Source: Alphaproteobacteria bacterium (GTDB lineage: Bacteria; Pseudomonadota; Alphaproteobacteria; UBA828). From it: a stretch of DNA of 64,000 nt. Below, piece by piece: positions 738 to 40,878 of the stretch (its first letter is position 1; each line of letters starts with the position of its first letter). The position numbers and the translations under genes were made by a program. Under the pieces are notes generated by a model, which saw only the letters and a program-made list of their open reading frames with translations, made no database searches and was not told the DNA's origin. Location of the stretch: contig CAXXVO010000005.1 in NCBI GenBank assembly GCA_963422645.2, positions 64,001 to 128,000 of the forward strand. The letters are read 5' to 3'.

Positions 738-2480
738 GCGCTTCAGTCCCGATCGCCCGGACGTAGCGCAAGCATGACCGGCCCCTACGGCGATACTCCA
801 TTGCTCCACATGCCGGCGGTCGCGCTTCGAGGTCTCCCTCGACCTGACGCGGCAGCGACATCCTTTCCAGCTTCTCGCGGCCATCGCCGTCAGCCCGCTG
901 GACGTCCCGGCCGTTCGGGCGCATTTCAGCGTCACCTCCAGGCCGGTGCCGGGACCCGTCCCGAGGCCGCTCGGCCCGGCATCGCCTGCGTCGTCGGCCG
1001 AAGCGGCGAGGTCGCGCGGGTGGCTGCAGGCGGCGAAGTCCGCGACGTCCACGAACGGACCGTCGCGGCTGTGCTTGAACTCCCGCCGATCCTAGCCGCT
1101 GTGCCAAGGCAACAACCCCTGTACCGCCCTTGTCTCAGCAGCCTATGGACGGCAACGAACTATAATGGTAACTGCCCAGGTCGTCTGATTTGTCATTTTG
1201 GGCCAGTGGATTGAGGCGTTTCTCGTTCGGAGTTGGTGGAAAGGGCTTGACGGGAATTTCGGGAAATGACTCAACAACGACATGAGCAATCCCGAGTCGC
1301 CGCGCGGCCCTTCGACGGGAGCAGCGCCCGAAACGCCCGCGCAGAAGATCGCCCGCCTGGAGGAGGAGAACGCCCGGCTTCGGGAGGAAAATGCCTGGCT
1401 TCGGCAGCAGAACGCGCGGCTGGAAGAGCAAGTCGCGCGTCTCGTCGAGCGCATCGAGGAGTTGGAGCGCCGTCTCGGCCTCAACAGCGGCAACAGCGGC
1501 AAGCCGCCTTCGAGCGATGGGCTGAGGAAGCCGAATTCGAAGCGGCGAACCCGAAGCCTGCGCGGCAAATCGGGCCGCAAGCCCGGTGGCCAGCCCGGCC
1601 ACAAGGGCAAGACGCTGCGCCGCGCCGATCACCCGGATCGGGTGAAGGATCACGTCCCGGCTTCCTGCAAGGGATGCGGTTCGCCGCTTTCGGACGCGGC
1701 CAGGGCGGGAACGCCCGTCGCCCGCCAGGTGTTCGATCTGCCCGAGCCGAGCCCCCTGGAGGTGACCGAGCACCGGGCGCATGCCAAGTGCTGCGGGCAT
1801 TGCGGGACGGTGACCCGGGCGGCGTTCCCCGACGGGGTGTCGGCGCCGGTGCAGTACGGCCCGCGCATTGCCGGGGTGGCGGTCTACCTTCAGCACGCTC
1901 ACTTCCTGCCGGAGGATCGGCTGTCGCAGGTGATGGCCGAGCTCTTCGGCGCGCCGGTGACGGCTGCGACGTTGGCGACGATGAGCGAGAGGGCGGCCGA
2001 GCGGCTTGCGGGACGCGGCCTTGCACATACAGGACCTGGCGGCGGGCACGGCGCGGGTGAAACACATGGACGAGACCGGCTTGCGGATCGGCGGTCAGAC
2101 GCAGTGGCTTCATGTGATCTGCACGCCGCTGCTGGCGGCGTACCGGGTCAGCGGCAAGCGCGGCGCCCTGCTCTCGGGTGTCTCCGGCATCGTCGTGCAC
2201 GATCACTGGAAGCCGTACTTCGCGATGGAAGGGGTGGAGCACGGCCTGTGCAACGCCCATCACCTGCGGGAGTTGCAGGCGCTGGTGGACATCGAAGGGG
2301 AGGCTTGGGCCCGGCGGATGCAGCAGCTCCTGCGCCGAGCCAATCGCGCCGCCCGCATCGCGCTGGACAAAACAGTCATGGTCCCCGCGGTTCTGAGCCA
2401 CCCCGTGGCATGAAACAGGAGCGGTTCGGCTGACGTTTTCCTTGCGCTTGCACCCATTTGCCGTGTCAGGATGGGTATTG

Positions 2481-2661
2481 GCGGAGGTGGGGACGTGTGA
2501 GCGTCGTTATATCGGTGACGTAGTTCCCGATGACAAAACTGCTTCCGGCGGCCGGCTCCGCACCCCGTATTGTACCCGGCCCGTGGCCGTGGACGCGCGG
2601 CAAATTGCACCGCACCCGCTCGTCGGATGCGTGTTCTTCCGACCGCTGTCCCCGCCTCCAC
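2481..2661 (+). ncRNA. Candidate IS110 bridge/seek RNA in the left non-coding end
   Basis: 12-bp long-range stem 2483-2494/2648-2659 encloses hairpins ATCGG/CCGAT and GGCCGG/CCGGCC. IS110-group elements are known to encode such RNAs upstream of the recombinase. Confidence 0.55.
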
Positions 2662-2724
2662 CGTGGCGATGCCACGGCGTGATCGTACGCCGCCGTGGCG
2701 AGAGCGCAAATGAGGAGGAAGGCG

Positions 2725-3975
2725 ATGAAGACGGAAGGCTTGCACGTCGTCCGGCCGCGCGCGGCGGGTCTGGACGTGCACAAGATGGAGATCACCGCGA
2801 CGGTTCGCCTCTGTGAGGGCGAGGGTGAGCCGGTGGTGGAGACGCGCTGCTTCGGCACGCTGCCGAGCGGTCTGGAGGAGATGGTCGCGTGGCTGACCGG
2901 TCACGGCGTCGAGGCTGCGGTGATGGAAGGGACCGGGGTCTACTGGCAGGCGCCCTTCGCGGCCCTGGAGGCGGCCGGGCTCGAGGCGATCCTGGTGCAT
3001 GCGCGTCAGGTGAAGCAGTTGAAGGGGCGCAAGACCGACGTGGCGGACAGCGTGTGGCTGGCCTGCGTGTGCCAGTTCGGGCTCTGCACGCCTTCCCACG
3101 TTCCGCCTGAGCCGTTCCGGGAGCTGCGCGCACTGAGCCGCCAGCGCCGCGTCCTGGTCAGGCAGCGCTCCGCCGTGCGCAACCGCGTGCAGAAGATCAT
3201 CGACCGCGCCGGTGCGCGCATCGGCGGCATCCTCTCCGACGTCTTCGGCGTCAACGGCCGGAAGATCCTCGACGGCCTGGCGCAGGGGACGGCGCGCGAG
3301 GTCATCCTCGCCTCGCTCACCAGCCACGTTGCGAACAAGCTGGAGGGGCTCGGCGAGGCGCTCACCCTGAGCCTGGGCGACAACGACCGCTTCATGCTCA
3401 ACGACCTGCTGGAGGAGCATGACGCGCTTGAGGCGCGCATCGCGTCCTACACCAGGAAGATCGACGGGCAGATGACACCGTGGGAGGAGCAGCTCCGTCT
3501 GCTGACCACCATCCCCGGCATCGACCGCACCGCCGCCTCGACCATCCTCATCGAGATCGGCCCCGACATCGGCGTGTTCGCCTCCAAGGAGCACTTCGCC
3601 GCCTGGGCCGGGCTCTGCCCCGGCAACAACGAGAGCGGGGGCAAGCGCCGCAACGCACGCACCCGCATGGGCTCCAAGACCCTGCGCGCCTGCCTCGTCG
3701 AGTGTGCCCACGGCGCGGCCCGAACCAAGGGGTGCCAGTTCGAGGCTCATCACCGCGCCCTCGCCGCCCGGCGCGGCTACAAGCGCGCCATCGTCGCCGG
3801 CGCTCACAAGATGCTGCGCATCATCTATGTGGTGCTCAAGACCGGCAGGCCCTACTACGACCGCACGGCCGACTACGACGCTCTGATGGTCAAGCGCAAC
3901 GCTCCTCGGTGGATCCGCATGCTCCGCCGCTACGGCTACATCGAGCCCGTAGGCGCGGAACTCAAGGCCGCCTGA
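2725..3975 (+). CDS. IS110-family DEDD recombinase/transposase (intact)
   Basis: GLDVHK, MEGTG, KTDVADS (DEDD); IPGI and GLCPGNNESGGK (catalytic Ser); GAGGAGG RBS upstream. Confidence 0.95.
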   Translation: MKTEGLHVVRPRAAGLDVHKMEITATVRLCEGEGEPVVETRCFGTLPSGLEEMVAWLTGHGVEAAVMEGTGVYWQAPFAALEAAGLEAILVHARQVKQLKGRKTDVADSVWLACVCQFGLCTPSHVPPEPFRELRALSRQRRVLVRQRSAVRNRVQKIIDRAGARIGGILSDVFGVNGRKILDGLAQGTAREVILASLTSHVANKLEGLGEALTLSLGDNDRFMLNDLLEEHDALEARIASYTRKIDGQMTPWEEQLRLLTTIPGIDRTAASTILIEIGPDIGVFASKEHFAAWAGLCPGNNESGGKRRNARTRMGSKTLRACLVECAHGAARTKGCQFEAHHRALAARRGYKRAIVAGAHKMLRIIYVVLKTGRPYYDRTADYDALMVKRNAPRWIRMLRRYGYIEPVGAELKAA

Positions 3976-4850
3976 GCGGCCCGCATCTCGTCAGCCGGCT
4001 ACGCGGGACCGCTTCGGACCACATCGGGGAAGTCCACCGCTCGTCTCCGCCGCGCCGACCCTGGCGGTCTCAGCCAACGCCGTGACCTCGGGGTTGGAGC
4101 GTCACCGCGCGTCCCTCGCCAGAATCTGTTTCACGGCATATCGCCGTTCCGGCGAGGCTTGTGGCGCTGATCGAGCGCCGATACGACGAGATCATCGCCG
4201 ATGCGCTGGCCTTTCACGAGAGCCAACCACCGTTCTCGCCTGGCAAGAGGAAGAAGCGCCGGAAGCGAAGGATCGGTCACAATCTGGCCTTGAGGCTGCG
4301 CGACCACAAATGCGCGGTGCTCCGGTTCCTGATCGACCTCGAGGTCGGGTTCACGAACAACGAGGCCGAGCGCGACCTTCGGATGATGAAGCTGCGCCAG
4401 AAGATCTCCGGGGGCTTCCGGTCCGCGCAGGGGGCCGAGAACTTCGCCATCCTGCGCAGCGTCATCACCACCGCCAGAAAGCAGGGCTGGAATATCATCG
4501 AAGCCCTGACCAGCCCATCGGATCGGCTCATCGCCACCGTCAAGTGCGCGTAAGCTCACCTGGCACGGGTTCTCCAACAGCGGAGCCATTCTCATAAACG
4601 ATCATGGTCGACGCCGTGCTGGACCACCCCATAGAATGAAAATCGGTGCCCGTCGCGCGGGCGGACTTCGGGCCACATCGGGGTAGCTTACCGGTCGCAG
4701 TCCGCAAGAGGGGCATCGTGAGCTGTGAAACCCGGCGACCATAGAGGAGCACACGGGCGTCGCGTGGGTAGCGTTGTGCCGAATCCCAGAGAATTTTCAC
4801 AGCAAGAACCTGGGCAGTTACCTATAATGTTACTGTTTTTCGTCAAGGTT

Positions 4851-4963
4851 CAGACTTCCTGACCTCGTGATGCTGGCTGTTCTGGGCAGCGTGCCGGGAA
4901 CTCCTTGAATTCTGATACATTTCGGTTGTTTCAGGCGGTTTTTCGCTGGGTGTCGCGCCCGAG
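4851..4963 (+). mobile_element. Orphan left end of the IS at 33573-36084
   Basis: 113 bp matching 33573-33685, starting CAGACTTCCTGACCTC; truncated by the MITE at 4964. Confidence 0.9.
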
Positions 4964-5055
4964 TGTTGTTAAGCGTCGAATCTTGACCCCCTAGAATCTA
5001 GCTTGTTCAAAGGGTTACAGTGCCGATCGGCGTCGAAAACCCGCGCCGAACAACA
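4964..5055. mobile_element. 92-bp MITE with IS21-like ends
   Basis: TGTTGTT...AACAACA termini and internal GCGTCGAA repeats; no TSD; joins two truncated sequences. Confidence 0.65.
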
Positions 5056-5160
5056 GCTCGCGTGGTCGCAGACCAGCAGCACGCGCGACGTACTCCCCTG
5101 GTTGAGGGTCTCGAAGGGCGGCGGGTCGCCGGGCCCGAGCAGCGTCGCAGGCTTCGCCAC
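5056..5160 (-). pseudogene. N-terminal fragment of N-formylglutamate amidohydrolase
   Basis: LLGPGDPPPFETLN...RVLLVCDHAS is the typical N-terminus of the family; it ends at the MITE. Confidence 0.75.
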
Positions 5161-5162
5161 GC

Positions 5163-6305
5163 CTAGACCTTGTAGATGCGGCGCGCGTTCTCGACGCCGA
5201 TCAGGGAGGCGATGCGCTCGGCGTCCGCGCCCGAGCACTCGCCCTCCTCCACCCAGCGGCCGAGCGCGCGGGCAAGCGCGGTGCGGAAGCGCAGCGCGCC
5301 CAGGTAGTAGAGCTCCCCAAGGCCGAAGGCGTCGGTGCTGAAGAGCTGCTTCGTGAAGGGCACGAGCTCCAGCGCCTCGTCCATGATCCGCTGGTAGCTC
5401 GGCCCCACCCAGTTCAACGCGAAGCCCACGTCGAAGTAGACGCAGGGGAAGTTCTCCGACATCAGCCCCGCTTCGCGGTGGAAGGGGTAGCAGTGCAGCA
5501 GCGTGATGGGGAAGCCCCAGGGCTCCACCGCCTTGATCCAGGGCGTGAGATGGCTCGGGTCCACGCGGTGCAGCTCGATGTCGGGATCGCCGATGCCGAT
5601 ATGGAACTGGATCGGGAAGCCCCGCTCGCGTGCGATGTCGGCGCCGGTCCAGATCAGATGCCGCTCCAGCACCGGGTCTGTGAGCCGCACCTGGCCGGTC
5701 TGCTCGATCTCGGCGAGCCAGCGCCCTGCCGCCGCCTCGACCTCGGCGGGCGGCGGCTTCGCGTAGTCGATGCGGAGCGTCGCGCGGTACGCCAGGATCG
5801 ACTTGAGGCCGACGACCTGGTCGCCGAGGGACTCGCGCAAGGCCGCCTGGAAGGCCTGCGCGAAGCCCGCCGCAGAGACGCCGCCCTCAGCGACCCTCTC
5901 GGCGACCGATTCCATGCGCACGATCTCCCGCGCCGGCGCGCCGCCGATCGCGCCCACCTCGGCCACGCCGCAGAGCTCCTCCGGCCGGTTGCCGCTATCC
6001 ACGACATAGGTGCCGATCCCCGACGCGGCGAGGAAGCGCCGGTTCACCTCTTCGGCGCCGATCGCACGCCGGCGCTCGGCATAGTCGGCGGGCGCACAGA
6101 ATGGCTCCAGGTCCAGCAGGGGCGCGCACCAGCGCCGCAGGCTGAGCGCCACCGGCTTGTCCCAGTGGCTGGTGCCCGCCGGCGCCGGCGCAAAGGCCTC
6201 GCTCAGCGAATCGGCAAGCCGCTCGTCATCCAGGTCCACGGGAAAGAGGCCGTGGCAGTGATGGTCCACCAGGGGCAGCGCGTCGATGAAGTCGCTAATA
6301 GGCAT
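5163..6305 (-). CDS. Amidohydrolase family protein (FluG N-terminal/nodulin-6-like)
   Basis: VDHHCH, LKSILAYR, QFHIGIGD, LLHCYPF, FSTD motifs. Confidence 0.85.
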   Translation of the reverse strand: MPISDFIDALPLVDHHCHGLFPVDLDDERLADSLSEAFAPAPAGTSHWDKPVALSLRRWCAPLLDLEPFCAPADYAERRRAIGAEEVNRRFLAASGIGTYVVDSGNRPEELCGVAEVGAIGGAPAREIVRMESVAERVAEGGVSAAGFAQAFQAALRESLGDQVVGLKSILAYRATLRIDYAKPPPAEVEAAAGRWLAEIEQTGQVRLTDPVLERHLIWTGADIARERGFPIQFHIGIGDPDIELHRVDPSHLTPWIKAVEPWGFPITLLHCYPFHREAGLMSENFPCVYFDVGFALNWVGPSYQRIMDEALELVPFTKQLFSTDAFGLGELYYLGALRFRTALARALGRWVEEGECSGADAERIASLIGVENARRIYKV

Positions 6306-7608
6306 CGAGATAACTCCGAATTACTGCGTCGGGGGCAAGCTCGCCCGCCGCCGCGAGCTCATGGCGCTTGAGCGAAACATAAGCCTGCCAGAGCGGATCG
6401 GGAAACCAGCCGCGCACCGCGTCCTCCGCTTCCGCCGCCGCGAGCGCCTCTTCGAGCGAATGCGGCAGCCAGCGCACGCCGAGCGCTTCTCGTTCCGCGT
6501 CGCTGAGATCGGAGGGATCGCGCTCGACCAGCGGCGGCGTCGGCAGGCCCTCGCGCAGGCCTTCGAGCCCCGCCTGGACCAGCACCGCCAGCGTCACATG
6601 GGGCGAGGCGGCGGCATCGGCCGGCCTGAACTCGAAGTTGTACTGCGCGGCATCGACCCCATCCGGTCCGTGCCGGCCGGAGCAGATGCGGATCGCCGCC
6701 TCGCGGTTGTCGGCGCCGAAGGCCGCGGCCCCGCCCGCCCAGTGGCCCGGCGCGAGCCGCAGGTAGGAGACCGGCGCGGGCGCCGTGAAGGCCGTGAGCG
6801 CCGGCAGGCGACGCATGATCCCCGCGACGAAGCTGCCGGCCTGCGCGGCCACGCCCGCCGGCTGCGCCGGGTCGTGCGAGACCGGCGCACCGTCGAGGTC
6901 TTGTAGGCTCAGGTGCACGTGAACCCCGTTGCCGAACCCCTGCGCCGCAATCATCGGCGTGAAGGTCGCGCGATATCCCTCGCGGGTTGCGACGGCGCGC
7001 ACCAGCTCGCGCACCAGCAGCGCCCGGTCGGCGGCAGCGAGACCCATTGCCGGGCGGCAGTTCACCTCGTACTGGCCGGGGCCGCCCTCCGGCTCGAAGG
7101 TCTCGGGTTCGAGTCCCGCGGCCCGCAGCGCCGCCACCAGCACGGCGCCAAAGCCGAGCGCCTGCTCGTGGGCGATGATGCTGTAGTTGGGCCCAATCCG
7201 CTCCAGCCCCTCCACCAGATAGAACTCCTGCTCGAAGGCGGCCATGAGTCGCAGCCCGAACTCCTCTTCGAGAGCGTCCAGCGCGCGCCGCAGCAAGGCC
7301 CTGAGGCAGGCCTCCCAGGGCGTGCCGTCGGGCGCGATGCCGTCGCAGATATAGGCGTGGAAGGGAGGCTGTTCCGGCCACAGATCGACTCGAGCACCCG
7401 CCTCCCGGTCGGCCACCAGCCAGACATCGCCGAGCGCACCCCAGGGGCTCGGCGCCAGCGTGGAGAGCGGGCCGATCGACTGCGCCACCGGCACCCAGCC
7501 GATGCCGGTCTCGAGACGCCGCTCGAGATCGGCCGCCGGGAAGCCCCGCCCGCGCATGAGGCCGGCCAGATCGGGCCATCCGAAAAAAACCAGCTCCTCG
7601 CCCCGCAT
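6295..7608 (-). CDS. Glutamine synthetase-like gamma-glutamyl ligase
   Basis: AFEQEF, EGGPGQYE, GNGVHVHLS, NREAAIR, FEFRPAD motifs. Confidence 0.9.
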   Translation of the reverse strand: MRGEELVFFGWPDLAGLMRGRGFPAADLERRLETGIGWVPVAQSIGPLSTLAPSPWGALGDVWLVADREAGARVDLWPEQPPFHAYICDGIAPDGTPWEACLRALLRRALDALEEEFGLRLMAAFEQEFYLVEGLERIGPNYSIIAHEQALGFGAVLVAALRAAGLEPETFEPEGGPGQYEVNCRPAMGLAAADRALLVRELVRAVATREGYRATFTPMIAAQGFGNGVHVHLSLQDLDGAPVSHDPAQPAGVAAQAGSFVAGIMRRLPALTAFTAPAPVSYLRLAPGHWAGGAAAFGADNREAAIRICSGRHGPDGVDAAQYNFEFRPADAAASPHVTLAVLVQAGLEGLREGLPTPPLVERDPSDLSDAEREALGVRWLPHSLEEALAAAEAEDAVRGWFPDPLWQAYVSLKRHELAAAGELAPDAVIRSYLDAY

Positions 7609-7736
7609 CCGCGCCCTCGCCTTGCCGCGCCGCCACTTTAGCCCGCCTTTCTCACCAAGGTCATGGTCTGCGCGTCGTGCGGAAACGCACGCGGCGCTTC
7701 ATGCTATCGTCCGGCCGCAATCGGCGGGAGGGGAGC

Positions 7737-8516
7737 ATGGCGATCACCTTAGAGGGCAAGGCCGCGATCGTGACCGGCGCGGGCCGCGGCATCGGCAAGG
7801 GCATCGCGACGGTGTTCGCGAACGAGGGCGCGAGCGTGCTGGTGGTGAACCGCAGCGCCGCGGCCGGCCAGGCCACGGCCGACGAGATCGCGGCCGCCGG
7901 CGGCGAGGCCTCGTTCCTCCAGGCCGACGTCAAGGAGCGCGCCGACATGGAGCGGATGGCGGCAGCCTGCATCGAGCGCTACGGCGCCATCGACGTCTTC
8001 TGCGCCAACGCCGGGATCTTCCCCACCTCCCACATCGTGGACATGAGCGACGAGACCTGGGACGACGTGCTCGACACCAACCTCAAGGGCGTCTTCTACG
8101 GGATGCGGGCCTGCATCCCGCAGATGAAGGCGCAAGGCCGCGGCCGCATCGTGGTGATCTCGTCGATCACCGGCCCCAATGTCGGCTGGCCCGGGCTCTC
8201 GCACTACATGGCGTCCAAAGGTGGCGTGAACGCGCTCGTCAGGGGCGCCGCGCTGGAGCTCGCCAAGCACGACATCACGGTCAATGCGATCTCCCCCGGC
8301 TCGATCATGACGCCGGGCCTGGTGGAGCTCGGCGGGGAGCAGGTGGAAGAGATCAGGGCGATCATCCCGGCCGGCTATATCGGCGAGACCGAAGACATCG
8401 CCTACGCCGCCGTCTACCTCGCCAGCGACCAGGCGCGCTACATCACCGGCCAGGCGCTGGTGCTGGACGGCGGCCAGATCCTGCCGGAAAGCCCCGCCGC
8501 CCTCGCCGACGCCTGA
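7737..8516 (+). CDS. SDR family oxidoreductase (FabG-like)
   Basis: TGAGRGIG, NAG, YxxxK (YMASK); RBS GGAGGGGAG upstream. Confidence 0.9.
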   Translation: MAITLEGKAAIVTGAGRGIGKGIATVFANEGASVLVVNRSAAAGQATADEIAAAGGEASFLQADVKERADMERMAAACIERYGAIDVFCANAGIFPTSHIVDMSDETWDDVLDTNLKGVFYGMRACIPQMKAQGRGRIVVISSITGPNVGWPGLSHYMASKGGVNALVRGAALELAKHDITVNAISPGSIMTPGLVELGGEQVEEIRAIIPAGYIGETEDIAYAAVYLASDQARYITGQALVLDGGQILPESPAALADA

Positions 8517-8585
8517 GCCGCGAGCGCCCCGCGCCGAAGCGGCCCAATTGACAAACCCCGCGCCGCCGCTATCGATGGTGCAGGA

Positions 8586-9957: not shown

Positions 9958-11847
9958 GTAACTGCCCAGGTCGTCTGATTTGTCATTTTGGGCCAGTGGA
10001 TTGAGGCGTTTCTCGTTCGGAGTTGGTGGAAAGGGCTTGACGGGAATTTCGGGAAATGACTCAACAACGACATGAGCAATCCCGAGTCGCCGCGCGGCCC
10101 TTCGACGGGAGCAGCGCCCGAAACGCCCGCGCAGAAGATCGCCCGCCTGGAGGAGGAGAACGCCCGGCTTCGGGAGGAAAATGCCTGGCTTCGGCAGCAG
10201 AACGCGCGGCTGGAAGAGCAAGTCGCGCGTCTCGTCGAGCGCATCGAGGAGTTGGAGCGCCGTCTCGGCCTCAACAGCGGCAACAGCGGCAAGCCGCCTT
10301 CGAGCGATGGGCTGAGGAAGCCGAATTCGAAGCGGCGAACCCGAAGCCTGCGCGGCAAATCGGGCCGCAAGCCCGGTGGCCAGCCCGGCCACAAGGGCAA
10401 GACGCTGCGCCGCGCCGATCACCCGGATCGGGTGAAGGATCACGTCCCGGCTTCCTGCAAGGGATGCGGTTCGCCGCTTTCGGACGCGGCCAGGGCGGGA
10501 ACGCCCGTCGCCCGCCAGTGTGTTCGATCTGCCCGAGCCGAGCCCCCTGGAGGTGACCGAGCACCGGGCGCATGCCAAGTGCTGCGGGCATTGCGGGACG
10601 GTGACCCGGGCGGCGTTCCCCGACGGGGTGTCGGCGCCGGTGCAGTACGGCCCGCGCATTGCCGGGGTGGCGGTCTACCTTCAGCACGCTCACTTCCTGC
10701 CGGAGGATCGGCTGTCGCAGGTGATGGCCGAGCTCTTCGGCGCGCCGGTGACGGCTGCGACGTTGGCGACGATGAGCGAGAGGGCGGCCGAGCGGCTTGC
10801 GGGACGCGGCCTTGCACATACAGGACCTGGCGGCGGGCACGGCGCGGGTGAAACACATGGACGAGACCGGCTTGCGGATCGGCGGTCAGACGCAGTGGCT
10901 TCATGTGATCTGCACGCCGCTGCTGGCGGCGTACCGGGTCAGCGGCAAGCGCGGCGCCCTGCTCTCGGGTGTCTCCGGCATCGTCGTGCACGATCACTGG
11001 AAGCCGTACTTCGCGATGGAAGGGGTGGAGCACGGCCTGTGCAACGCCCATCACCTGCGGGAGTTGCAGGCGCTGGTGGACATCGAAGGGGAGGCTTGGG
11101 CCCGGCGGATGCAGCAGCTCCTGCGCCGAGCCAATCGCGCCGCCCGCATCGCGCTGGACAAGGATATCGCCGTTCCGGCGAGGCTTGTGGCGCTGATCGA
11201 GCGCCGATACGACGAGATCATCGCCGATGCGCTGGCCTTTCACGAGAGCCAACCACCGTTCTCGCCTGGCAAGAGGAAGAAGCGCCGGAAGCGAAGGATC
11301 GGTCACAATCTGGCCTTGAGGCTGCGCGACCACAAATGCGCGGTGCTCCGGTTCCTGATCGACCTCGAGGTCGGGTTCACGAACAACGAGGCCGAGCGCG
11401 ACCTTCGGATGATGAAGCTGCGCCAGAAGATCTCCGGGGGCTTCCGGTCCGCGCAGGGGGCCGAGAACTTCGCCATCCTGCGCAGCGTCATCACCACCGC
11501 CAGAAAGCAGGGCTGGAATATCATCGAAGCCCTGACCAGCCCATCGGATCGGCTCATCGCCACCGTCAAGTGCGCGTAAGCTCACCTGGCACGGGTTCTC
11601 CAACAGCGGAGCCATTCTCATAAACGATCATGGTCGACGCCGTGCTGGACCACCCCATAGAATGAAAATCGGTGCCCGTCGCGCGGGCGGACTTCGGGCC
11701 ACATCGGGGTAGCTTACCGGTCGCAGTCCGCAAGAGGGGCATCGTGAGCTGTGAAACCCGGCGACCCCAGAGGAGCACACGGGCGTCGCGTGGGTAGCGT
11801 TGTGCCGAATCCCAGAGAATTTTCACAGCAAGAACCTGGGCAGTTAC
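9958..11847 (+). mobile_element. IS66-family element copy 2
   Basis: Same 14-bp TIR; 8-bp TSD GGAAAATC at 9950-9957 and 11848-11855. Confidence 0.95.
10072..11579 (+). pseudogene. IS66 TnpC transposase with two frameshifts (~10518, ~10796)
   Basis: Same protein as copy 1, split over ORFs starting at 10072, 10520 and 10797. Confidence 0.88.
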
Positions 11848-33455: not shown

Positions 33456-33572
33456 CAATCGCACTCGGCCATTTCGCGGCGAGGCACGGCGTCGCCACTT
33501 CACCTGTCGAACTGAGACACGAAGCGGTTCGTCGCCAGCCCGGTTGCCCGTGGCGTGCACGCCACATAGTCT

Positions 33573-36084
33573 CAGACTTCCTGACCTCGTGATGCTGGCT
33601 GTTCTGGGCAGCGTGCCGGGAACTCCTTGAATTCTGATACATTTCGGTTGTTTCAGGCGGTTTTTCGCTGGGTGTCGCGCCCGAGGTCTGATATTATAAT
33701 TTGATACCAATTGCACGGTCTCAACCATGCCCAGTACCCTCCCAATGTGCCCTCCAGAGGCGGTCTCGATCGGCAACAGCTGCTTCGCCGTCCTGATCTC
33801 GGACGACACCTTCACCTACTTTTCCAACCTCATTCCCTTTGACAGCCACGCCGCCGATGACCGCACGGCCATGCTCTTGCGGATCGGCCGCCTCGCGGCG
33901 ATCAGCGCGGTCTCGCCGCAGGAACTGGCTGACGCTTTCGCTGTCTCGCGCGCGACGGTGCAGCGCGCACGACGGCGCTACCTGGCCGAGGGCGAAGCGG
34001 GGTTCATGAAGCCCCGGCGCGGTCGCGGGCCGTCGGTGTTCACTCCGGAGTTGGCGGAGAAGGCGACGGCGTTGCTGGCATCGGGCCTGAGCGGCTCTGC
34101 GGCGGCCCGGGTTCTCGGCGTGTCAGCGCCATCGGTCAACAAGTGGCGCCGTCAGGGACTGATCGGCAACACGGAGGCGGATGGGGAGCCCGGACGCTCA
34201 GCGCTGGCTGCGCCGCCTGACGCGGGTGCGGCTCCTGAAGGCCGTGTCGATGAAGAGAGTACCGGTGCCCCGGGGCCGGAGACGGCGCCGGGGCTGGAAG
34301 CGCAGCCGCAAACGGATCGCAGCGCGCGCGATCGGCGGGACCGGCAGGCGCCGATGGGGCGTGCGACTTGCGATGTTCCGGCTCGGGTTCTGGCCAGTTG
34401 TGGACAGGCGGGGCCGGTCGAACCGCAGTTCGCCGCCGCCGCCCGCGGTGTCCGCTTCGGCGGCGTGCTCGCCGCCCTGCCGGCCCTGCTGAAGGAAGGT
34501 CTTCTCTCCGAGACCGGTCTCCTGCCATTGCTGCCGAAGGGCTATTACGGCTTGCCTACGATCCTGCTCTTCCTGGCCTTCATGACCTTGGCGCGGGTGC
34601 GCAACCCCGAGAGCCTGCGCTACCAGGCGCCGGGCGAATGGGGCGCCATTCTCGGCCTCGATCGCTGCCCCGAGGTCAAGACGCTGCGCCGCAAGATCGC
34701 TCTCATCGCCGACGACGAGGCCGGCGTGCGGGCGTGGCAGCTCGCCCTTGCCAGGCGCTGGCAGGCGCCGACGAGCCGGAGCTCTGGGCGACGCTGGCCA
34801 TCGACGGGCACGTCAAGGTCTACTCCGGCCGCAAGGGGCGCTTGCCCAAGCACTTCGTCTCGCGCGAGAAGCTGTGCCTGCCGGCGAGCGCCAGCTACTG
34901 GATCAACGCTCTGGGCGGCAAGCGCTGCTCTGTCTGCACAAGCCGCTGGACCCGAAGATGGTCGCGGCCATCGAAGCCGACGTGGTGCCGGCGCTGCAGG
35001 AGCTTGGGATCGTTGGCGCCGGGGCGCCGGACCTGACCGCCGAGCATCCCGGCCAGCCGGCGCTCACCCTGGTCTTCGACCGCGAGGGCTGGAGCCCGGA
35101 TCTGTTCCGCCGGCTGGCGAGGCGCGGCGTCGCCTGCCTGACCTGGCACAAGAACTTCAGGGGCGAGGACTGGCCGGCCGAGGACTTCGGCGCGATGACC
35201 GTTCCCATTCACGGACCGGCGGCGGACGGCAGCGCCACCATGCGGCTGGCTGAGAAGCCGGTGACGTTGCCGAACGGCTTCAGGGTGCGCCAGATCCGCC
35301 GCCTGCTCGACAACGGCCGTCAGGTGCCGCTGATCACCACCGATCCGCACAAGCCGATGGCTGAGGTTGCGGGCGCCATGTTCTCGCGCTGGTCGCAGGA
35401 GAACTTCTTCAAGTACATGCGTGACGAGTTCAATCTCGACGCCCTGCCGACCCACGAGCTCGAGCCTCTCGATCCCGCCGCCATGGTCGTCAACCCGCTG
35501 CGGCGGGCCTATGACAAGGCAATCCATCGCCTCGACCGCCAGCTTGGCCGCCTGCGCAACCGCATCGCCGACACGGCCCGGAAGAAGCAGCCGACGGCGG
35601 AACTCAGGAGGGAAGTCAGGGACCTCCAGGATGTCCGCGACATCGTCAGGGCCAGCCGCAGGGAGACGCCCAAGCACTGCCGGGCCGGCGACCTCGACGA
35701 AGCCGAGCAGCTCGATGCCTTGCCCGCGCGCGAGCGCCTCCTCCTCGACGTCATCCGGATGATCGCCTACCGCGCCGAAACCCGCATGATGCTTCCCGTC
35801 ATGCAGGCGCAGGGCCACAAGCCCCATCCCCGGAAACTGCTTCAAGCGCTGCTCACCGCCGATGCCGACATCCTGCCGGATCCTGGCAATGGCCTCCTGC
35901 GGGTCCACATTCTTGGCCTCGCAAACGACGCCTGCGACCGTTGGATCGATGCGGTTCTGAGCGACCTGAACGCCACCGAAACGGTCTTCCCCGGCACCCG
36001 TCTGCGCATAGTCTACGACATCGACGGGGCCTCGGAATCCGCGCGGCTCGTGTCACCTAAAATCAGCAGAGGTCAGGAAGTCTG
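33573..36084 (+). mobile_element. DDE-type insertion sequence (family not assigned)
   Basis: Perfect TIR CAGACTTCCTGACCTC/GAGGTCAGGAAGTCTG; the transposase stop lies in the right TIR. Confidence 0.88.
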
Positions 36085-36085
36085 A
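33727..36085 (+). pseudogene. Transposase with N-terminal HTHs, frameshifts at ~34768 and ~34923
   Basis: IDGHVKVY, VFDREG, SRWSQENFFK DDE-like motifs spread across three frames. Confidence 0.82.
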
Positions 36086-36140
36086 GGTTACAAAACCGGT
36101 GCCGTTCTTAAGACGTCGCGCGGTGGGGCTCACAGACAAG

Positions 36141-38147: not shown

Positions 38148-38621
38148 CGGGCGGCGCAGCACCAGCATGGCCGACGCGCACCGTACCCGCCGGCTCGCCC
38201 ATATCGACTGCCCGGGCGGCGGGCAGGTCTGGGTCGATGGCACCACGCTTTACATCGGCCACATGCGCTGGCCGTCGGGCACCACCATCGTCGACGTGGC
38301 CGACCCTGCGAACCCGCGCATCCTCGCGCGGATCGAGCTGCCGGAGGGCTGGCACTCGCACAAGGTCCGCACCGCGAACGGCGTCATGCTGGTCAATCAC
38401 GAGCGCCTCGGCGGCGGCGGCAACGACGCCAACGGGTTCGGCGGCGGGCTCGGCATCTACGACGTTTCGAATCCCGCCAAGCCGAACCTCGTCACCAAGT
38501 GGCGCACCGCCGGCAAGGGCGTGCACCGCTTCACCTTCGACGGGCGCTACGCCTACATCTCGCCGACTGCCGAGGGCTACGTCGGCAACATCGTGATGAT
38601 CCTCGATCTCGCCGACCCGGC

Positions 38622-40188
38622 TGTAGGGGGACGAAAGTCATTGCGAATCCGGAAGATGCCGGGAAGAAGGCGGAAGAAGGCGGACGGTCAAGGGGTTGGC
38701 GGCGTTTCCGGGGTCTGGCGGGCCGGACGAAAGTCTTTGCGAATCCGGCCCGGAAAGGGCCGTGAATTGGCTGGAAGCGGGGATTTTCGGGGCGTTTCAG
38801 GGGTGCTGAAAGGCCTGTAAATCGGGGCGGTTCCGGGGCCCAGACCAGGGCGTTGCAAAGCATGGAGTGGCGGAAAATGTTGTGCGACATTGGGGCCGTC
38901 TCTGGCGATTGTGACCGTCACCACGAGACAAAGCCCCCCGGCGAACTTCTTGCAAGTTCGCCGAGGGGCACCCGCCCCAAAACCTCAACAAATCCGAGCG
39001 GATCAGGCCCCGATCCCCGCTGAAAGACCGCGCGCGCTCACCGCCGGCGCAAGCGGCGTCAGCCGACACACCCAGCTCACCGTGCCCTCCCCGGTCTCCG
39101 CCGGCTATATCGTCATCGAGTGGGGCTGATCGCGATGCGCCGCACCCTCGTCCCCGCAGGCGGCGGCATCGACAGCACCGCCCTCGCCCTCCTCGTCCTG
39201 CGCGAGACCGAAGACGAGGTCGTCCTCTCCTACTACCGCGAGCCGGCCCGCGAACTCCCGGAGCGCATCGCCCGCGAGCAGGCCGCAAGCGAGGCCGTCG
39301 CAGACTGGCTCTCCCGCAACGTCCGGCCCGTGCGCCACGTCAGCCGCGACGCCCTGCGCCTCGACCTCGACGCCGGCGCCGAATACCCGATCAGGGGCGG
39401 GAGAGGGTGGGAGGGCGTCTGCGACCCCACATTCGGCCCCTGGGGCCTCGACCGGTACGCAACCCACGCCGACGAGGCCGAGCGCCACCGCGCCGACCGG
39501 GTGATGCTCGGCATCACCTCGTGGGACACCGCCGACGACATGCACCGCATGTACTGGTATCCCGTCTACCGCGCGCGCACCGCCGTCCCCATGGAACTCC
39601 CCTTCTTCCCCGGCTGGGAGGACGGCGCGCAGTGGCCGCCGTCGCGGGACGACCCCTTCGGACCCGTCGCCGGGCGCTTCATGCTCCAGGCCCTGCTCCC
39701 GCCCGGGCTGGAGGCGCTCACCTGGCGATGCACCGTCGCGGCAGAGCCCTGCGGACGCTGCCCCCGATGCCGCCTCAACGCCTTCTTCGAGCGCTTCTGC
39801 CGGGGACGCCCGGCGGACCAGGTCGCCCGCATCGACGACGCCCTCGAACGACACCGCGGCGCAGGCCGATGGTACGCCGACGCCGACCCCGGAAGATGGA
39901 CCGATCACGACGGATACGACGCCGCAGAACGCGCCGTCGAAGACCCCGAATGGTGGAAGGCCGAACTCGAACGCCCGTGCCGCCCCGGCGCCCGCCCCGG
40001 TCCCGACCGCGCCTGAAACCCCCACGCACCGCCCGTGCACGGGCCCCGAAACCCCCGCGCAGCGCTCCTTCATGGCCCATGCACAGGCCGGTTTTTCCAG
40101 CCCGGTTCAGCCCCGAAAACCAGCCGATTTTCCAGGCCATTCGCAAAGACTTCCGGCCGCGATTCGCAAAGACTTCCGGCCGGCTACA
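38622..40188. mobile_element. Non-autonomous Tn7/Tn5053/Mu-like mini-transposon
   Basis: TGTAG...CTACA ends; CCGGC 5-bp TSD (38617-38621, 40189-40193); AAGTC(T/A)TTGCGAAT sites at 38634, 38730 and inverted at 40139, 40162. Confidence 0.9.
39135..40016 (+). CDS. Divergent QueC-like PP-loop protein (cargo)
   Basis: N-terminal GGGIDST PP-loop and LTWRC...PCGRCPRC zinc motif, as in QueC. Confidence 0.75.
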   Translation: MRRTLVPAGGGIDSTALALLVLRETEDEVVLSYYREPARELPERIAREQAASEAVADWLSRNVRPVRHVSRDALRLDLDAGAEYPIRGGRGWEGVCDPTFGPWGLDRYATHADEAERHRADRVMLGITSWDTADDMHRMYWYPVYRARTAVPMELPFFPGWEDGAQWPPSRDDPFGPVAGRFMLQALLPPGLEALTWRCTVAAEPCGRCPRCRLNAFFERFCRGRPADQVARIDDALERHRGAGRWYADADPGRWTDHDGYDAAERAVEDPEWWKAELERPCRPGARPGPDRA

Positions 40189-40878
40189 CCGGCGCTGCCG
40201 CAGGAGGTGGGCCGCTGGTGGATCCCCGGCCAGTGGCAGGCGGGCGGCGAGGAGTACCCTTGGGAGAACTGGGTGGCGCCCCGCTGCCATCACCCGCTCC
40301 GCCTCGGCGACCGGCTCTACGTCAGCTACTGGCACCACGGCCTCTTCATCCTCGACATCGAGGACATGACCCGGCCGAAGCACGTTGCCGGCGTCAACAC
40401 CAGCCCCGCCTTCCCGCACCCCACCCACACCTGCCTGCCCTTCCCCTACAAGCTCAAGGGCCGGCACATCATGGTGGTGGCGGACGAGGACGTGGCGAAG
40501 CTCTGGCCCTCGCCGCCGGCCTTCGCCTGGGTCTACGACATCACCGACGAGCGCTGCCCCATCCCCATCAGCACCATCCACGTGGATGGAGTCGATCAGG
40601 ATGGCAGCCCCCAGCCCGACATGACCGGCTGCCACCAGCCCTCGGACCGATTCACCGGCAACGTCGTGCCCTTCGCCTGGTTCGCCCAGGGCCTGCGCCT
40701 GGTGGACGTGTCGGACCCCTTCGCGCCCTGCGAGGTCGCACGCTACGTCCCCGACCCGCCCGAGGGATGCGAGCGCGCCTCCTCCAACGACGTCACCGTC
40801 GACGACCGCGGCCTCATCTACCTGATCGACCGTCAGCGCGGCGTCGACATCATCGAGACCGACGCTCTCTGAACCGCC

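Follow-up and report, generated by a model that had tools for sequence, protein, structure and literature searches.

A transposase-less insert in an LVIVD-repeat gene belongs to a family of Mu-like transposable phages and is probably a stump decayed in place

How did an insert with the ends of a mobile element, and without a transposase, come to lie inside an LVIVD-repeat gene, and to which class of elements does it belong? We analysed a 64,000-nucleotide stretch of DNA, referred to as the window herein, that contains this locus. The insert spans 1,567 bp (38622–40188, flanking duplications excluded), with TGTAG at its left terminus (38622–38626) and CTACA at its right (40184–40188), and is bordered by two copies of CCGGC, a 5-bp target site duplication (TSD; 38617–38621 and 40189–40193). 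The terminal inverted repeat is 28 nt long (82%). The subterminal repeats are arranged differently at the two ends: the copies of a 24-nt direct repeat on the left (38629–38652 and 38725–38748, 96% identity) lie 96 bp apart, and those of a 23-nt repeat on the right (40136–40158 and 40159–40181, 96% identity) are adjacent, in tandem, and inverted with respect to the left pair. A 17-nt motif, CGRAAGTCWTTGCGAAT, matches the 64-kb window exactly four times, each time at one of these repeats, where 0.01 would be expected, and none of 100 shuffles reached four. We regard the repeats as putative transposase-binding sites. No transposase ORF was found inside the insert in the ORF list or with Pfam.

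The two parts of the LVIVD gene both match Pfam LVIVD: the 5' part (38167–38621, plus strand; E 2.4e-8) ends with the left CCGGC, and the 3' part (40189–40872, plus strand; E 1.4e-5) begins with the right one. Since the left half comprises 455 nt, or 151 codons plus 2 nt, and base 40194 occupies the third position of a codon in the 40072–40872 frame, coordinate arithmetic shows that removing the insert and one CCGGC restores the LVIVD frame. An ortholog of the C-terminal half was found in 18 of 18 same-genus genomes searched, and in the two whose junction was inspected, G005 and G001, alignment revealed the uninterrupted site with a single CCGGC. An earlier sequence-only reading had described this anatomy, from the ends, insert length and TSD to the two spaced left sites, the two tandem inverted right sites, the split gene whose frame is restored on removal and the lack of a transposase, and our coordinates, motif counts, domain matches and the relatives' empty sites confirm it. 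Its proposal that an empty-site allele might be seen in read data fared less clearly. A contig from run X15 joins 38616 to 40189 precisely, but it comes from one of four runs, has a depth of 6.1 versus 16–23 in the flanks, and has a side of 25 nt; contigs from runs X16 and X18 reach 22–27 nt into the element and were not counted, the threshold for bridging a junction being 31 nt. The X15 contig suggests that the insertion is polymorphic, perhaps recent, and that the empty site may exist as an allele.

Tiling divided the insert into three parts. The left-end arm (38622–38838, plus strand; element positions 1–217) carries the TGTAG terminus and the spaced sites L1 and L2, and its 217 bp are 98.2–99.1% identical to another 18 full-length left ends of the genome; four further left ends stop at 187–198 bp. 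It is followed by an inverted terminal fragment of about 202 bp (38839–39040, minus strand) that matches positions 204 to 1 of an unrelated transposon, which we call transposon X, at 100%. The transposon X terminus (C6 103040) adjoins the right arm at 39040/39041. The remainder (39041–40188, plus strand) is made up of the right arm's final 1,148 bp, 96.0–99.5% identical to 13 other full-length right-arm copies; it holds the end of a glycine-rich tail-fibre-assembly-like gene (the last ~89 bp, to 39129), a QueC-like ORF, the two tandem sites and the CTACA terminus.

The sequence-only reading had recommended looking for the ends elsewhere, and this was productive: the genome contains 82 such termini (29 R, 23 L, 18 L' and 12 R'), all 82 of which start with TGTAG. 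Twenty pairs, each of an L-type and an R-type end, are flanked by identical 5-mers and enclose 0.9–22.7 kb. Eleven of the 20 TSDs fit N-Y-S-R-N, which we take to be the target consensus of Mu, versus a genome background of 0.196 (binomial P 4.6e-4). We clustered the ORFs of the 20 TSD-flanked copies and scanned family representatives with Pfam and PHROGs. The longer copies carry Mu F, Mu portal, terminase, Mu gp27, GemA, an SLT lysozyme, protease, cement protein, major head protein, tail protein J and a tail-fibre-assembly-like protein (domains Phage_Mu_F, Portal_Mu, Terminase_6C, Phage_Mu_Gp27, GemA and SLT), and of these phage genes only the last one of the right arm remains in the window copy. 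The family has in common with Mu and Mu-like phages, which include the D3112/B3/DMS3 and RcapMu types, the TG..CA termini, the 5-bp TSD, several putative transposase sites that are spaced at one end but in tandem at the other, the N-Y-S-R-N bias of its targets and genes for gp27, terminase, portal, F and GemA; its relatives have an rve-type A gene and an AAA_22-type B gene. The insert is a member of a family of Mu-like transposable phages, not a Tn7/Tn5053 element.

The nearest records are Microcystis phage Mae-JY22 (PP438414.1) and the IMG/VR contigs G081 and G082, to which the portal is 53–55% identical, and all three carry a MuA/MuB-type pair. In the viral contig G081 (43.6 kb; CheckV 95%), the last ORF, F, lies ~380 bp from the contig end, and the two proteins of the pair are 592 aa (transposase, phrog_310, E 4e-80) and 358 aa long (transposition protein, phrog_296, E 1.7e-50). 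The arm is the same in G082. The gene order of the near-complete viral contigs is that of the longer copies plus the MuA/MuB-type genes, and in intact relatives of ~43 kb it runs from the right end through the tail/capsid arm, the centre, the MuA/MuB-type genes, GemA, lysis, gp27, terminase, portal and F to the left end. The arm with A, B and, further on, gp27, terminase, portal and F runs to the spaced-site end and the capsid/tail arm runs the opposite way, to the tandem-site end, in contrast to Mu, in which all late genes lie in one direction. The family documents this two-arm gene order for a Mu-like clade. A related 19-kb element in G047 has, at its J/glycine-rich end, TGTAGCC followed by two tandem 22-nt sites; an exact-pattern search for the tandem right-end sites in genome contigs and viral contigs outside the window's own genome gave no match. 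The same-genus genome G012 has one related left end, a solo stump that retains no more than part of F.

The 298-aa QueC-like ORF (39120–40016, plus strand), which the sequence-only reading took for the cargo of a transposon, has no other gene between it and the right end and recurs in the copies with a full right arm. It belongs to the phage itself, as its right-terminal gene, and is not an exchangeable cargo. Of the proposed family with identical ends and exchangeable single-gene contents, the near-identical ends and the variable contents hold across the 82 termini and 20 pairs, but the contents are arm remnants and nested IS elements. Two alternative right-terminal accessory modules occur in the family, the QueC-like gene or a 2OG-Fe(II) oxygenase with a 146-aa gene; in Mu, the DNA-modification gene mom occupies the corresponding position. 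The ORF appears to encode a divergent phage-type PP-loop protein. Like phage QueC-type enzymes (PF06508, phrog_1550), it combines a PP-loop-like stretch near the N terminus (G-G-G-I-D-S) with a C-x-x-C-x-x-C stretch near the C terminus, but it is too divergent for the Pfam model (PF06508, no match at E 0.01). It matches phrog_1550, 'QueC-like', over residues 8–69 only (E 2.8e-5) and PDB 3bl5 QueC at E 0.32, where the PP-loop and the C-x-x-C-x-x-C stretch are aligned. Among the matches listed, its nearest Atlas clusters are viral QueC-like proteins; the best nine all score 0.94–0.97, and eight of these carry PF06508 QueC on 10–99% of their members. A single-sequence AlphaFold model (mean pLDDT 36) was too poor for a fold search, and no other 7-deazaguanine pathway gene lies beside the gene in the copies examined. 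Eight of the 12 full-length copies of the ORF region keep 897 nt and four differ in length or carry 1–3 gaps; changes are distributed 17:22:29 over the codon positions, with 23 synonymous versus 35 non-synonymous, a pattern that, from these alignments, looks like near-neutral decay. The apparent resemblance of an ORF antisense to the QueC-like gene to the portal gene was a single-linkage clustering artefact that arose via a fusion ORF.

The assembly, rated 99.6% complete in 23 contigs, was searched for a counterpart of the relatives' MuA/MuB-type pair. No cognate A/B pair was detected in any copy or elsewhere in the genome, where the only pair of the kind belongs to transposon X. The phrog_310 matches in the genome are transposon X, IS481-like elements and IS21, and the A proteins of Mae-JY22 and G081 found no match when used as queries. 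Profile searches with PF09299 and PF02914 were likewise without a match in the genome, but the control genomes also gave none. Genome-wide tblastn with the proteins of two relatives recovered F 19 times, portal 10–11, terminase 6, gp27 2, GemA 1 and J 6–17 times, and matched neither A, B, capsid nor tape measure, nor most of the remaining central genes; gene copy number declines sharply towards the centre, where it reaches zero. One L'-type copy, C8_85071, holds a divergent capsid and protease that the relatives' protein queries did not match. Relatives in the family have the transposase pair, this genome has lost it, and neither A/B nor the centre is retained in any copy here. Two other candidates were set aside: a 455-aa AAA_22 ORF on contig C15, considered as MuB, has transport and dehydrogenase genes and an IS as neighbours and no phage genes, and the IS21-like IstA/IstB inside many copies, considered as the family's transposase, belong to a separate 2,551-bp IS with its own ends.

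Transposon X is a 5,189-bp unit with ends TGAGCG..CGCTCA, also found as solo copies, and encodes a 524-aa rve protein (phrog_310) and a 277–294-aa AAA_22 protein (phrog_296). The IS21-like element occurs in varying places and orientations, with dozens of copies elsewhere. As copies of transposon X are 99.4–100% identical and full-length IS21 copies ~99.9–100%, versus 94.6–99.6% for the Mu-like left arms, both look younger than the Mu-like family. Tiling placed IS21 or transposon X at the central junction of 12 of the 20 TSD-flanked copies, with a direct junction in the other eight. All 20 junctions differ and the structure of the window copy occurs once; four small elements examined by BLAST were each unique. 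Three independent deletions end at left-arm positions 217–221, just inside the end sites.

We consider it probable, at roughly 0.6, that the insert is the stump of a Mu-like transposable prophage that decayed in place. This reading is favoured over movement in trans as a mini-element because no cognate transposase was found, deletions are not shared between copies, and a young IS occupies the central junction in 12 of 20. A phage of the family would have entered the LVIVD gene through DDE (MuA-type) transposition, giving the TG..CA termini and the CCGGC duplication. The younger 5.2-kb transposon X would then have landed in the right arm, or transposed into it, just upstream of the last gene, and deletions would have removed everything from left-arm position 217 to the inside of transposon X. 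What was left would be the cis-acting ends, with two spaced sites on the left and two tandem sites on the right, 202 bp of transposon X and the QueC-like gene. The stump would now be immobile, as the family's own transposase is missing from every copy in the genome. We infer the size of the element at insertion as well as the order and mechanism of the deletions. Some observations sit uneasily with decay in place. All 20 TSD-flanked copies are smaller than 23 kb, and some central fragments might have survived had 20–40 full-length phages decayed independently; their absence fits elements that were short on arrival and also fits selection against central genes. The clustering of three deletion endpoints at 217–221 and the X15 contig joining the two flanks also count against it, and dozens of full-length Mu-like insertions in one lineage would be extraordinary beside the rare polylysogens of PMC11406979.

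Alternatively, the insert could be a natural mini-Mu, internally deleted before insertion and moved in trans by a helper MuA/MuB-type pair that has since been lost or lies outside the assembly. Both ends keep their sites and the 5-bp duplication is perfect, the centre is missing from all 20 copies while the two relatives' central genes are nowhere in the genome, the endpoints at 217–221 look as if a minimal functional end had been kept, and one run in four offers a possible empty-site allele. We nevertheless hold this to be doubtful. Amplification should give families that share one deletion, and neither the four small elements nor the 20 junctions include any derivative present twice; the window copy holds a fragment of transposon X, so a Mu-type transposase would have had to outlast the spread of that element; no cognate transposase was found in the genome; and the IS21 or transposon X sequences at 12 of 20 junctions suggest IS-mediated deletion in place. 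The non-autonomous shuttle of the sequence-only reading is doubtful on the same points, namely the lack of a common deletion junction and of a cognate transposase, and the younger fragment in its interior. Less probable again is truncation on arrival, in which a full-length phage served as the source and each new copy was internally deleted during the insertion event, like dead-on-arrival LINE copies. Unique junctions with both ends and the duplication intact, the fall in copy number from the ends to nothing in the centre, and the eight direct junctions without an IS would suit it. It requires a source phage, of which none was found, and additional steps to explain the transposon X fragment, it leaves the IS elements at 12 junctions to be accounted for, and we found no precedent for it in the literature. 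Such copies could arise if replicative transposition aborted, accompanied by template switching or end joining, or if a packaged genome that was defective integrated.

Two further explanations look beyond the phage's own machinery. Transposon X, which has about 20 intact transposase copies, makes duplications of 4–5 bp and adjoins Mu-like arms in at least 14 places, might recognise the TGTAG ends with its MuA/MuB-type pair, the only one in the genome, and so keep the stumps mobile. We think this very improbable: its ends start with TGAGCG and carry ATTTGNTG-type repeats that, compared by eye, do not match the CGRAAGTCWTTGCGAAT sites, its transposase is barely similar to that of the phage relative (BLASTP E 0.1), and none of the stump structures occurs twice. 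We see next to no probability for an IS21-derived MITE or for a mini-transposon of the Tn7 or Tn5053 family. Tn7 and Tn5053/Tn402 elements do have TGT..ACA ends, duplicate 5 bp of the target and carry transposase sites in asymmetric arrays, features common to these families, and they are alike in pairing a DDE transposase with an AAA+ partner; IS21 copies are, moreover, nested in many family members. Tn5053/Tn402 is marked by tniA/tniB/tniQ/tniR, a res site and 25-bp inverted repeats. The Pfam and PHROGs scans found no tnsA/tnsB/tnsC and no tnsD/tniQ between the ends of the 20 TSD-flanked copies, nor a tniA/B/Q/R set, only phage genes, structural and lytic, and nested IS elements; the proteins scanned included no TniQ or resolvase, and their only rve and AAA_22 pair was that of transposon X. 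No res site or attTn7-type targeting accompanies these ends, the interior is phage DNA, and the IS21-like unit has different ends. The class proposed by the sequence-only reading stands for the Mu/Tn7/Tn5053-type end anatomy and, through the Mu-type phage genes of the longer copies, for Mu, but not for Tn7/Tn5053, to which the gene content is opposed; the autonomous parent with tnsB/tniA that it envisaged did not turn up in those 20 copies.

By itself, the feature in the window is unremarkable, a prophage stump that inactivates a single LVIVD gene. More unusual is the genome as a whole, with 82 Mu-type termini, 20 TSD-flanked copies all without a centre and no autonomous copy left, on a chromosome saturated with IS elements that are 99.4–100% identical among copies. 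According to PMC11406979, Mu-like polylysogens are rare and have one or two extra copies, far fewer than the termini counted here. If the copies decayed in place, the genome records extreme polylysogeny by a transposable phage followed by IS-driven erosion, and shows how fast such prophages can be dismantled. If they arrived short, they would be, as far as our literature search reaches, the first natural family of non-autonomous Mu-type elements; the search found nothing on point about natural mini-Mu or multi-copy defective Mu-like elements. Laboratory mini-Mu and Ac/Ds derivatives resemble the family in keeping both ends, in having lost the transposase by internal deletion and in varying in size and content, but amplified non-autonomous families have one common deletion. 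Tentatively, and as a broader form of the same idea, there may have been a burst of natural mini-Mu elements, dozens of deleted derivatives that were moved in trans or truncated when made, with the autonomous phage lost later. Such a spread would be akin to that of Ds elements or dead-on-arrival LINEs in eukaryotes, and on this view the putative empty-site allele of run X15 would point to recent or still polymorphic derivatives among them. An inverted L'-L' structure of 450 bp (C12 72306–72755), considered as an artificial end pair that had moved, was rejected as its flanks differ (TCGGC versus GCCGG).

The 1,567-bp insert that splits an LVIVD-repeat gene in the window (38622-40188) begins with TGTAG (38622-38626), ends with CTACA (40184-40188) and lies between two copies of CCGGC (38617-38621 and 40189-40193), as the sequence-only reading had described. 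A repeat finder identified a 24-nt direct repeat at the left end (38629-38652 and 38725-38748), a 23-nt tandem repeat at the right end (40136-40158 and 40159-40181) that is inverted relative to the left pair, and a 28-nt terminal inverted repeat. Within the 64-kb window the 17-nt core of these sites, CGRAAGTCWTTGCGAAT, has four occurrences (0.01 expected), all of them at the four end sites, confirming the proposed paired left and tandem inverted right sites. The ORF pieces on both sides encode parts of an LVIVD-repeat protein, and by their coordinates removal of the insert plus one CCGGC restores the frame. The claim of a split but restorable gene is borne out by G005 and G001, the two same-genus genomes in which the junction was inspected, where the site is uninterrupted with a single CCGGC. 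The C-terminal half of the LVIVD gene has an ortholog in 18/18 same-genus genomes searched.

When the element was compared with its own genome by blastn (5.9 Mb, 23 contigs), 116 hits were obtained, which split it into three pieces, each repeated independently; the window copy was also tiled against reference arms and IS elements. Element positions 1-217 are a left end (window 38622-38838; positions 1-217 of end type L), 98-99% identical to ~22 other copies and 69-79% identical to a divergent type, L'. Positions 216-425 match at 98-100% ~25 copies that occur elsewhere alone, and correspond to an inverted fragment (38839-39040; 100% identity) of an unrelated transposon, X, running from X position 204 to 1. 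Positions 420-1567 match 13 other full copies, plus partial ones, at 96-99.5%, and represent the final 1,148 bp of right arm type R (39041-40188), starting within the 3' end of a glycine-rich gene and including a 298-aa ORF. In the variant right end, R', the final 118 bp are 91% identical.

Searching the genome with all four end kinds yielded 82 termini, every one beginning TGTAG (29 R, 23 L, 18 L' and 12 R'). Identical 5-mers flank 20 terminus pairs, 893 bp to 22.7 kb in length, each combining one L-type with one R-type end; further copies with near-identical ends, for which the sequence-only reading had suggested a BLAST search, are thus present. Mu has the target consensus N-Y-S-R-N, and 11 of the 20 duplications fit it, compared with 0.196 for the genome background (P = 4.6e-4). 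A 450-bp segment elsewhere (contig C12, 72306-72755) consists of two L'-type left ends face to face (TGTGG... and ...CTACA), with differing flanking 5-mers.

ORFs of the 20 copies were clustered and family representatives scanned. Adjoining the L or L' end is a Mu F-like head-morphogenesis gene, and the same side carries a portal gene (Portal_Mu in L' type, phrog_10963 in L type), the large terminase and then Mu gp27. The longest L-type copy (contig C6, 351607-363749) adds an SLT lysozyme, an HNH protein and the only GemA gene in the genome, while one L'-type copy adds a D12 methyltransferase, head protease, cement protein and major head protein. Adjoining the R end is the gene for a J-type central tail fibre protein (up to 1,444 aa), beyond which R-type arms continue with a glycine-rich tail-fibre-assembly-like gene followed by the QueC-like gene (298 aa). 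In the R' module (12 termini; e.g. locus L003, 10192-11340) these two are replaced by a 207-aa 2OG-Fe(II) oxygenase (PF13640, phrog_61) and a 146-aa protein without known family, so that two different enzyme-like genes occupy the right-end-adjacent position. These are genes of a Mu-like transposable phage, and by its ends, duplication, site layout and gene content the insert is a member of that group. The earlier assignment to Tn7 or Tn5053 does not hold, the likeness to how those elements work being limited to the shared DDE chemistry.

The QueC-like gene had been read as possibly swappable cargo. R-type right arms carry it at the same terminal position, and it is the phage's own last gene. 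Its ORF has no match in Pfam; a match to phrog_1550 (E = 2.8e-5), an alignment to the QueC structure 3bl5 that includes the PP-loop and cysteine motif (E = 0.32), and nearest Atlas neighbours that are viral QueC-like clusters suggest a weak but consistent resemblance to QueC. Among 12 copies of the region, the 897-nt length is kept in 8, with another length or 1-3 gaps in 4. Since variation is nearly even across codon positions, the ORF looks to be in near-neutral decay. Contigs from three of the four sequencing runs (X15, X16 and X18) join 39422 to 39942, skipping 519 bp within the ORF; this deletion presumably sits in another genomic right-arm copy.

The closest phage record is Microcystis phage Mae-JY22, with a 53% identical portal, a 591-aa rve protein, a 445-aa AAA_22 protein and a Gam gene. 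In the IMG/VR viral contig G081 (43.6 kb; CheckV 95%), a large J-like ORF shares one strand with other ORFs; past the central region, the opposite strand encodes a 592-aa phrog_310 transposase (E = 4e-80), a 358-aa phrog_296 transposition protein, homologues of GemA, gp27, terminase and portal, and a 303-aa F protein whose gene ends ~380 bp short of the contig end. A second viral contig, G082, shares this arm; its 588-aa transposase is encoded ~14 kb from the F end. From these gene orders we infer that "end, F, portal, terminase ... A", the arrangement found in this genome, is the normal layout of the clade. A related 19-kb element in G047, a genome of another family in the same order (C7, ~67150-87045; loci L034 and L035), has portal and F at one side, while its other side runs from capsid to J; it is without terminase or early genes, and looks like another fixed, defective copy. 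Its J/glycine-rich end has TGTAGCC and then two tandem 22-nt sites, the design of the R end, although the site sequences differ; homology to the L end is seen on the F side, where the terminal part and site are missing. The same-genus genome G012 holds one solo related L end with a partial F.

Mu-like transposable phages are expected to encode their own transposase, whereas none belonging to this family was found in this genome. No MuA/MuB-type pair was matched there except that of X: phrog_310 returned X copies, IS481-like genes and IS21 IstA, AAA_22 returned the B gene of X and unrelated proteins, and the A proteins of Mae-JY22 and G081 had no match. The autonomous parent envisaged by the sequence-only reading was accordingly not found by these searches. 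A tblastn search of the genome with 48 ORFs of G081 and G047 gave a steep gradient, with 19 hits for F, 10-11 for portal, 6 for terminase, 2 for gp27, 1 for GemA, 6-17 for J, and none for A, B, capsid, tape measure and most other central genes.

X, 5,189 bp long, is a transposon in its own right, with TGAGCG..CGCTCA ends and 4-5-bp duplications (24 left and 27 right termini; copies 99.4-100% identical; full copies e.g. at C8 135589-140777 and locus L001 ~3385-8576). It encodes a 205-aa protein, a 524-aa rve transposase (phrog_310, E = 1e-33), a 277-294-aa AAA_22 protein (phrog_296), a 181-aa protein and a Toprim/DUF3991 protein. As a mobiliser of the L and R ends it is very unlikely: its ends are unlike their sites, and its transposase shows scarcely any similarity to that of the phage relative. 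X adjoins Mu-like arms at at least 14 places, at varying positions and in both orientations, which could reflect target preference or insertions surviving in junk DNA.

We consider it somewhat probable (about 0.6) that family copies decayed in place. No deletion derivative was found twice by blastn and tiling of the 20 copies, an IS21-family element or X lies exactly at the central junction in 12 of them, and no transposase source was found in the genome, all of which we count in favour of this reading. The IS21-family element (2,551 bp; IstA 508 aa, IstB 242 aa) recurs in dozens of ~99.9-100% identical copies (e.g. C10 37027-39577, and within loci L003, L004, L006-L008 and L015). In three Mu-like copies it sits at L position 198, in both orientations and joined to different R-arm positions, the pattern that would be expected of IS-mediated adjacent deletion; together with insertions into several other L and L' ends, within their first 170-290 bp, this placement suggests an insertion hotspot directly inside the phage end. 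IS copies are nearly identical among themselves whereas Mu-like left arms differ by 0.4-5.4%, which places IS activity later.

Arrival as an already short element, by movement in trans or truncation on arrival taken jointly, appears rather unlikely, even though the central genes of G081 and G047 are missing from the whole genome, all 20 duplication-flanked copies are small, and three deletion endpoints fall at L 217-221. PMC11406979 also describes polylysogens of Mu-like phages as uncommon and carrying one or two additional copies. Empty-site reads, which the sequence-only reading had proposed to look for, may be represented by one X15 contig, counted in favour of early shortness, that joins 38616 to 40189, skipping exactly the element and one CCGGC; the join is precise, but its depth is 6.1 against 16-23 in the flanks and its shorter side spans just 25 nt. 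Depth within the element is many times flank depth in 4/4 runs, as expected of a multi-copy repeat.

The stump is by itself ordinary; unusual features of the family are its scale, a two-arm gene order and the complete loss of the centre from every copy. Open-access main texts yielded no account of deleted Mu-type elements forming a natural multi-copy family. The genome is very heavily loaded with IS elements: hundreds of hits at 99-100% identity, on all large contigs, came from a 20-kb stretch of C8 and belong to five or more different repeated elements, and the reported 8.5% contamination may reflect this repetitiveness. Within the window, further high-copy IS elements lie at ~1206-4821 and ~9996-11847, and fragments of a multi-copy IS at ~33566-34403 and ~35890-36089, while a Transposase_29 (PF21804) gene that includes HTH domains, lying between these fragments and overlapping them, is split over two overlapping frames (33727-35253 and 34748-36085).
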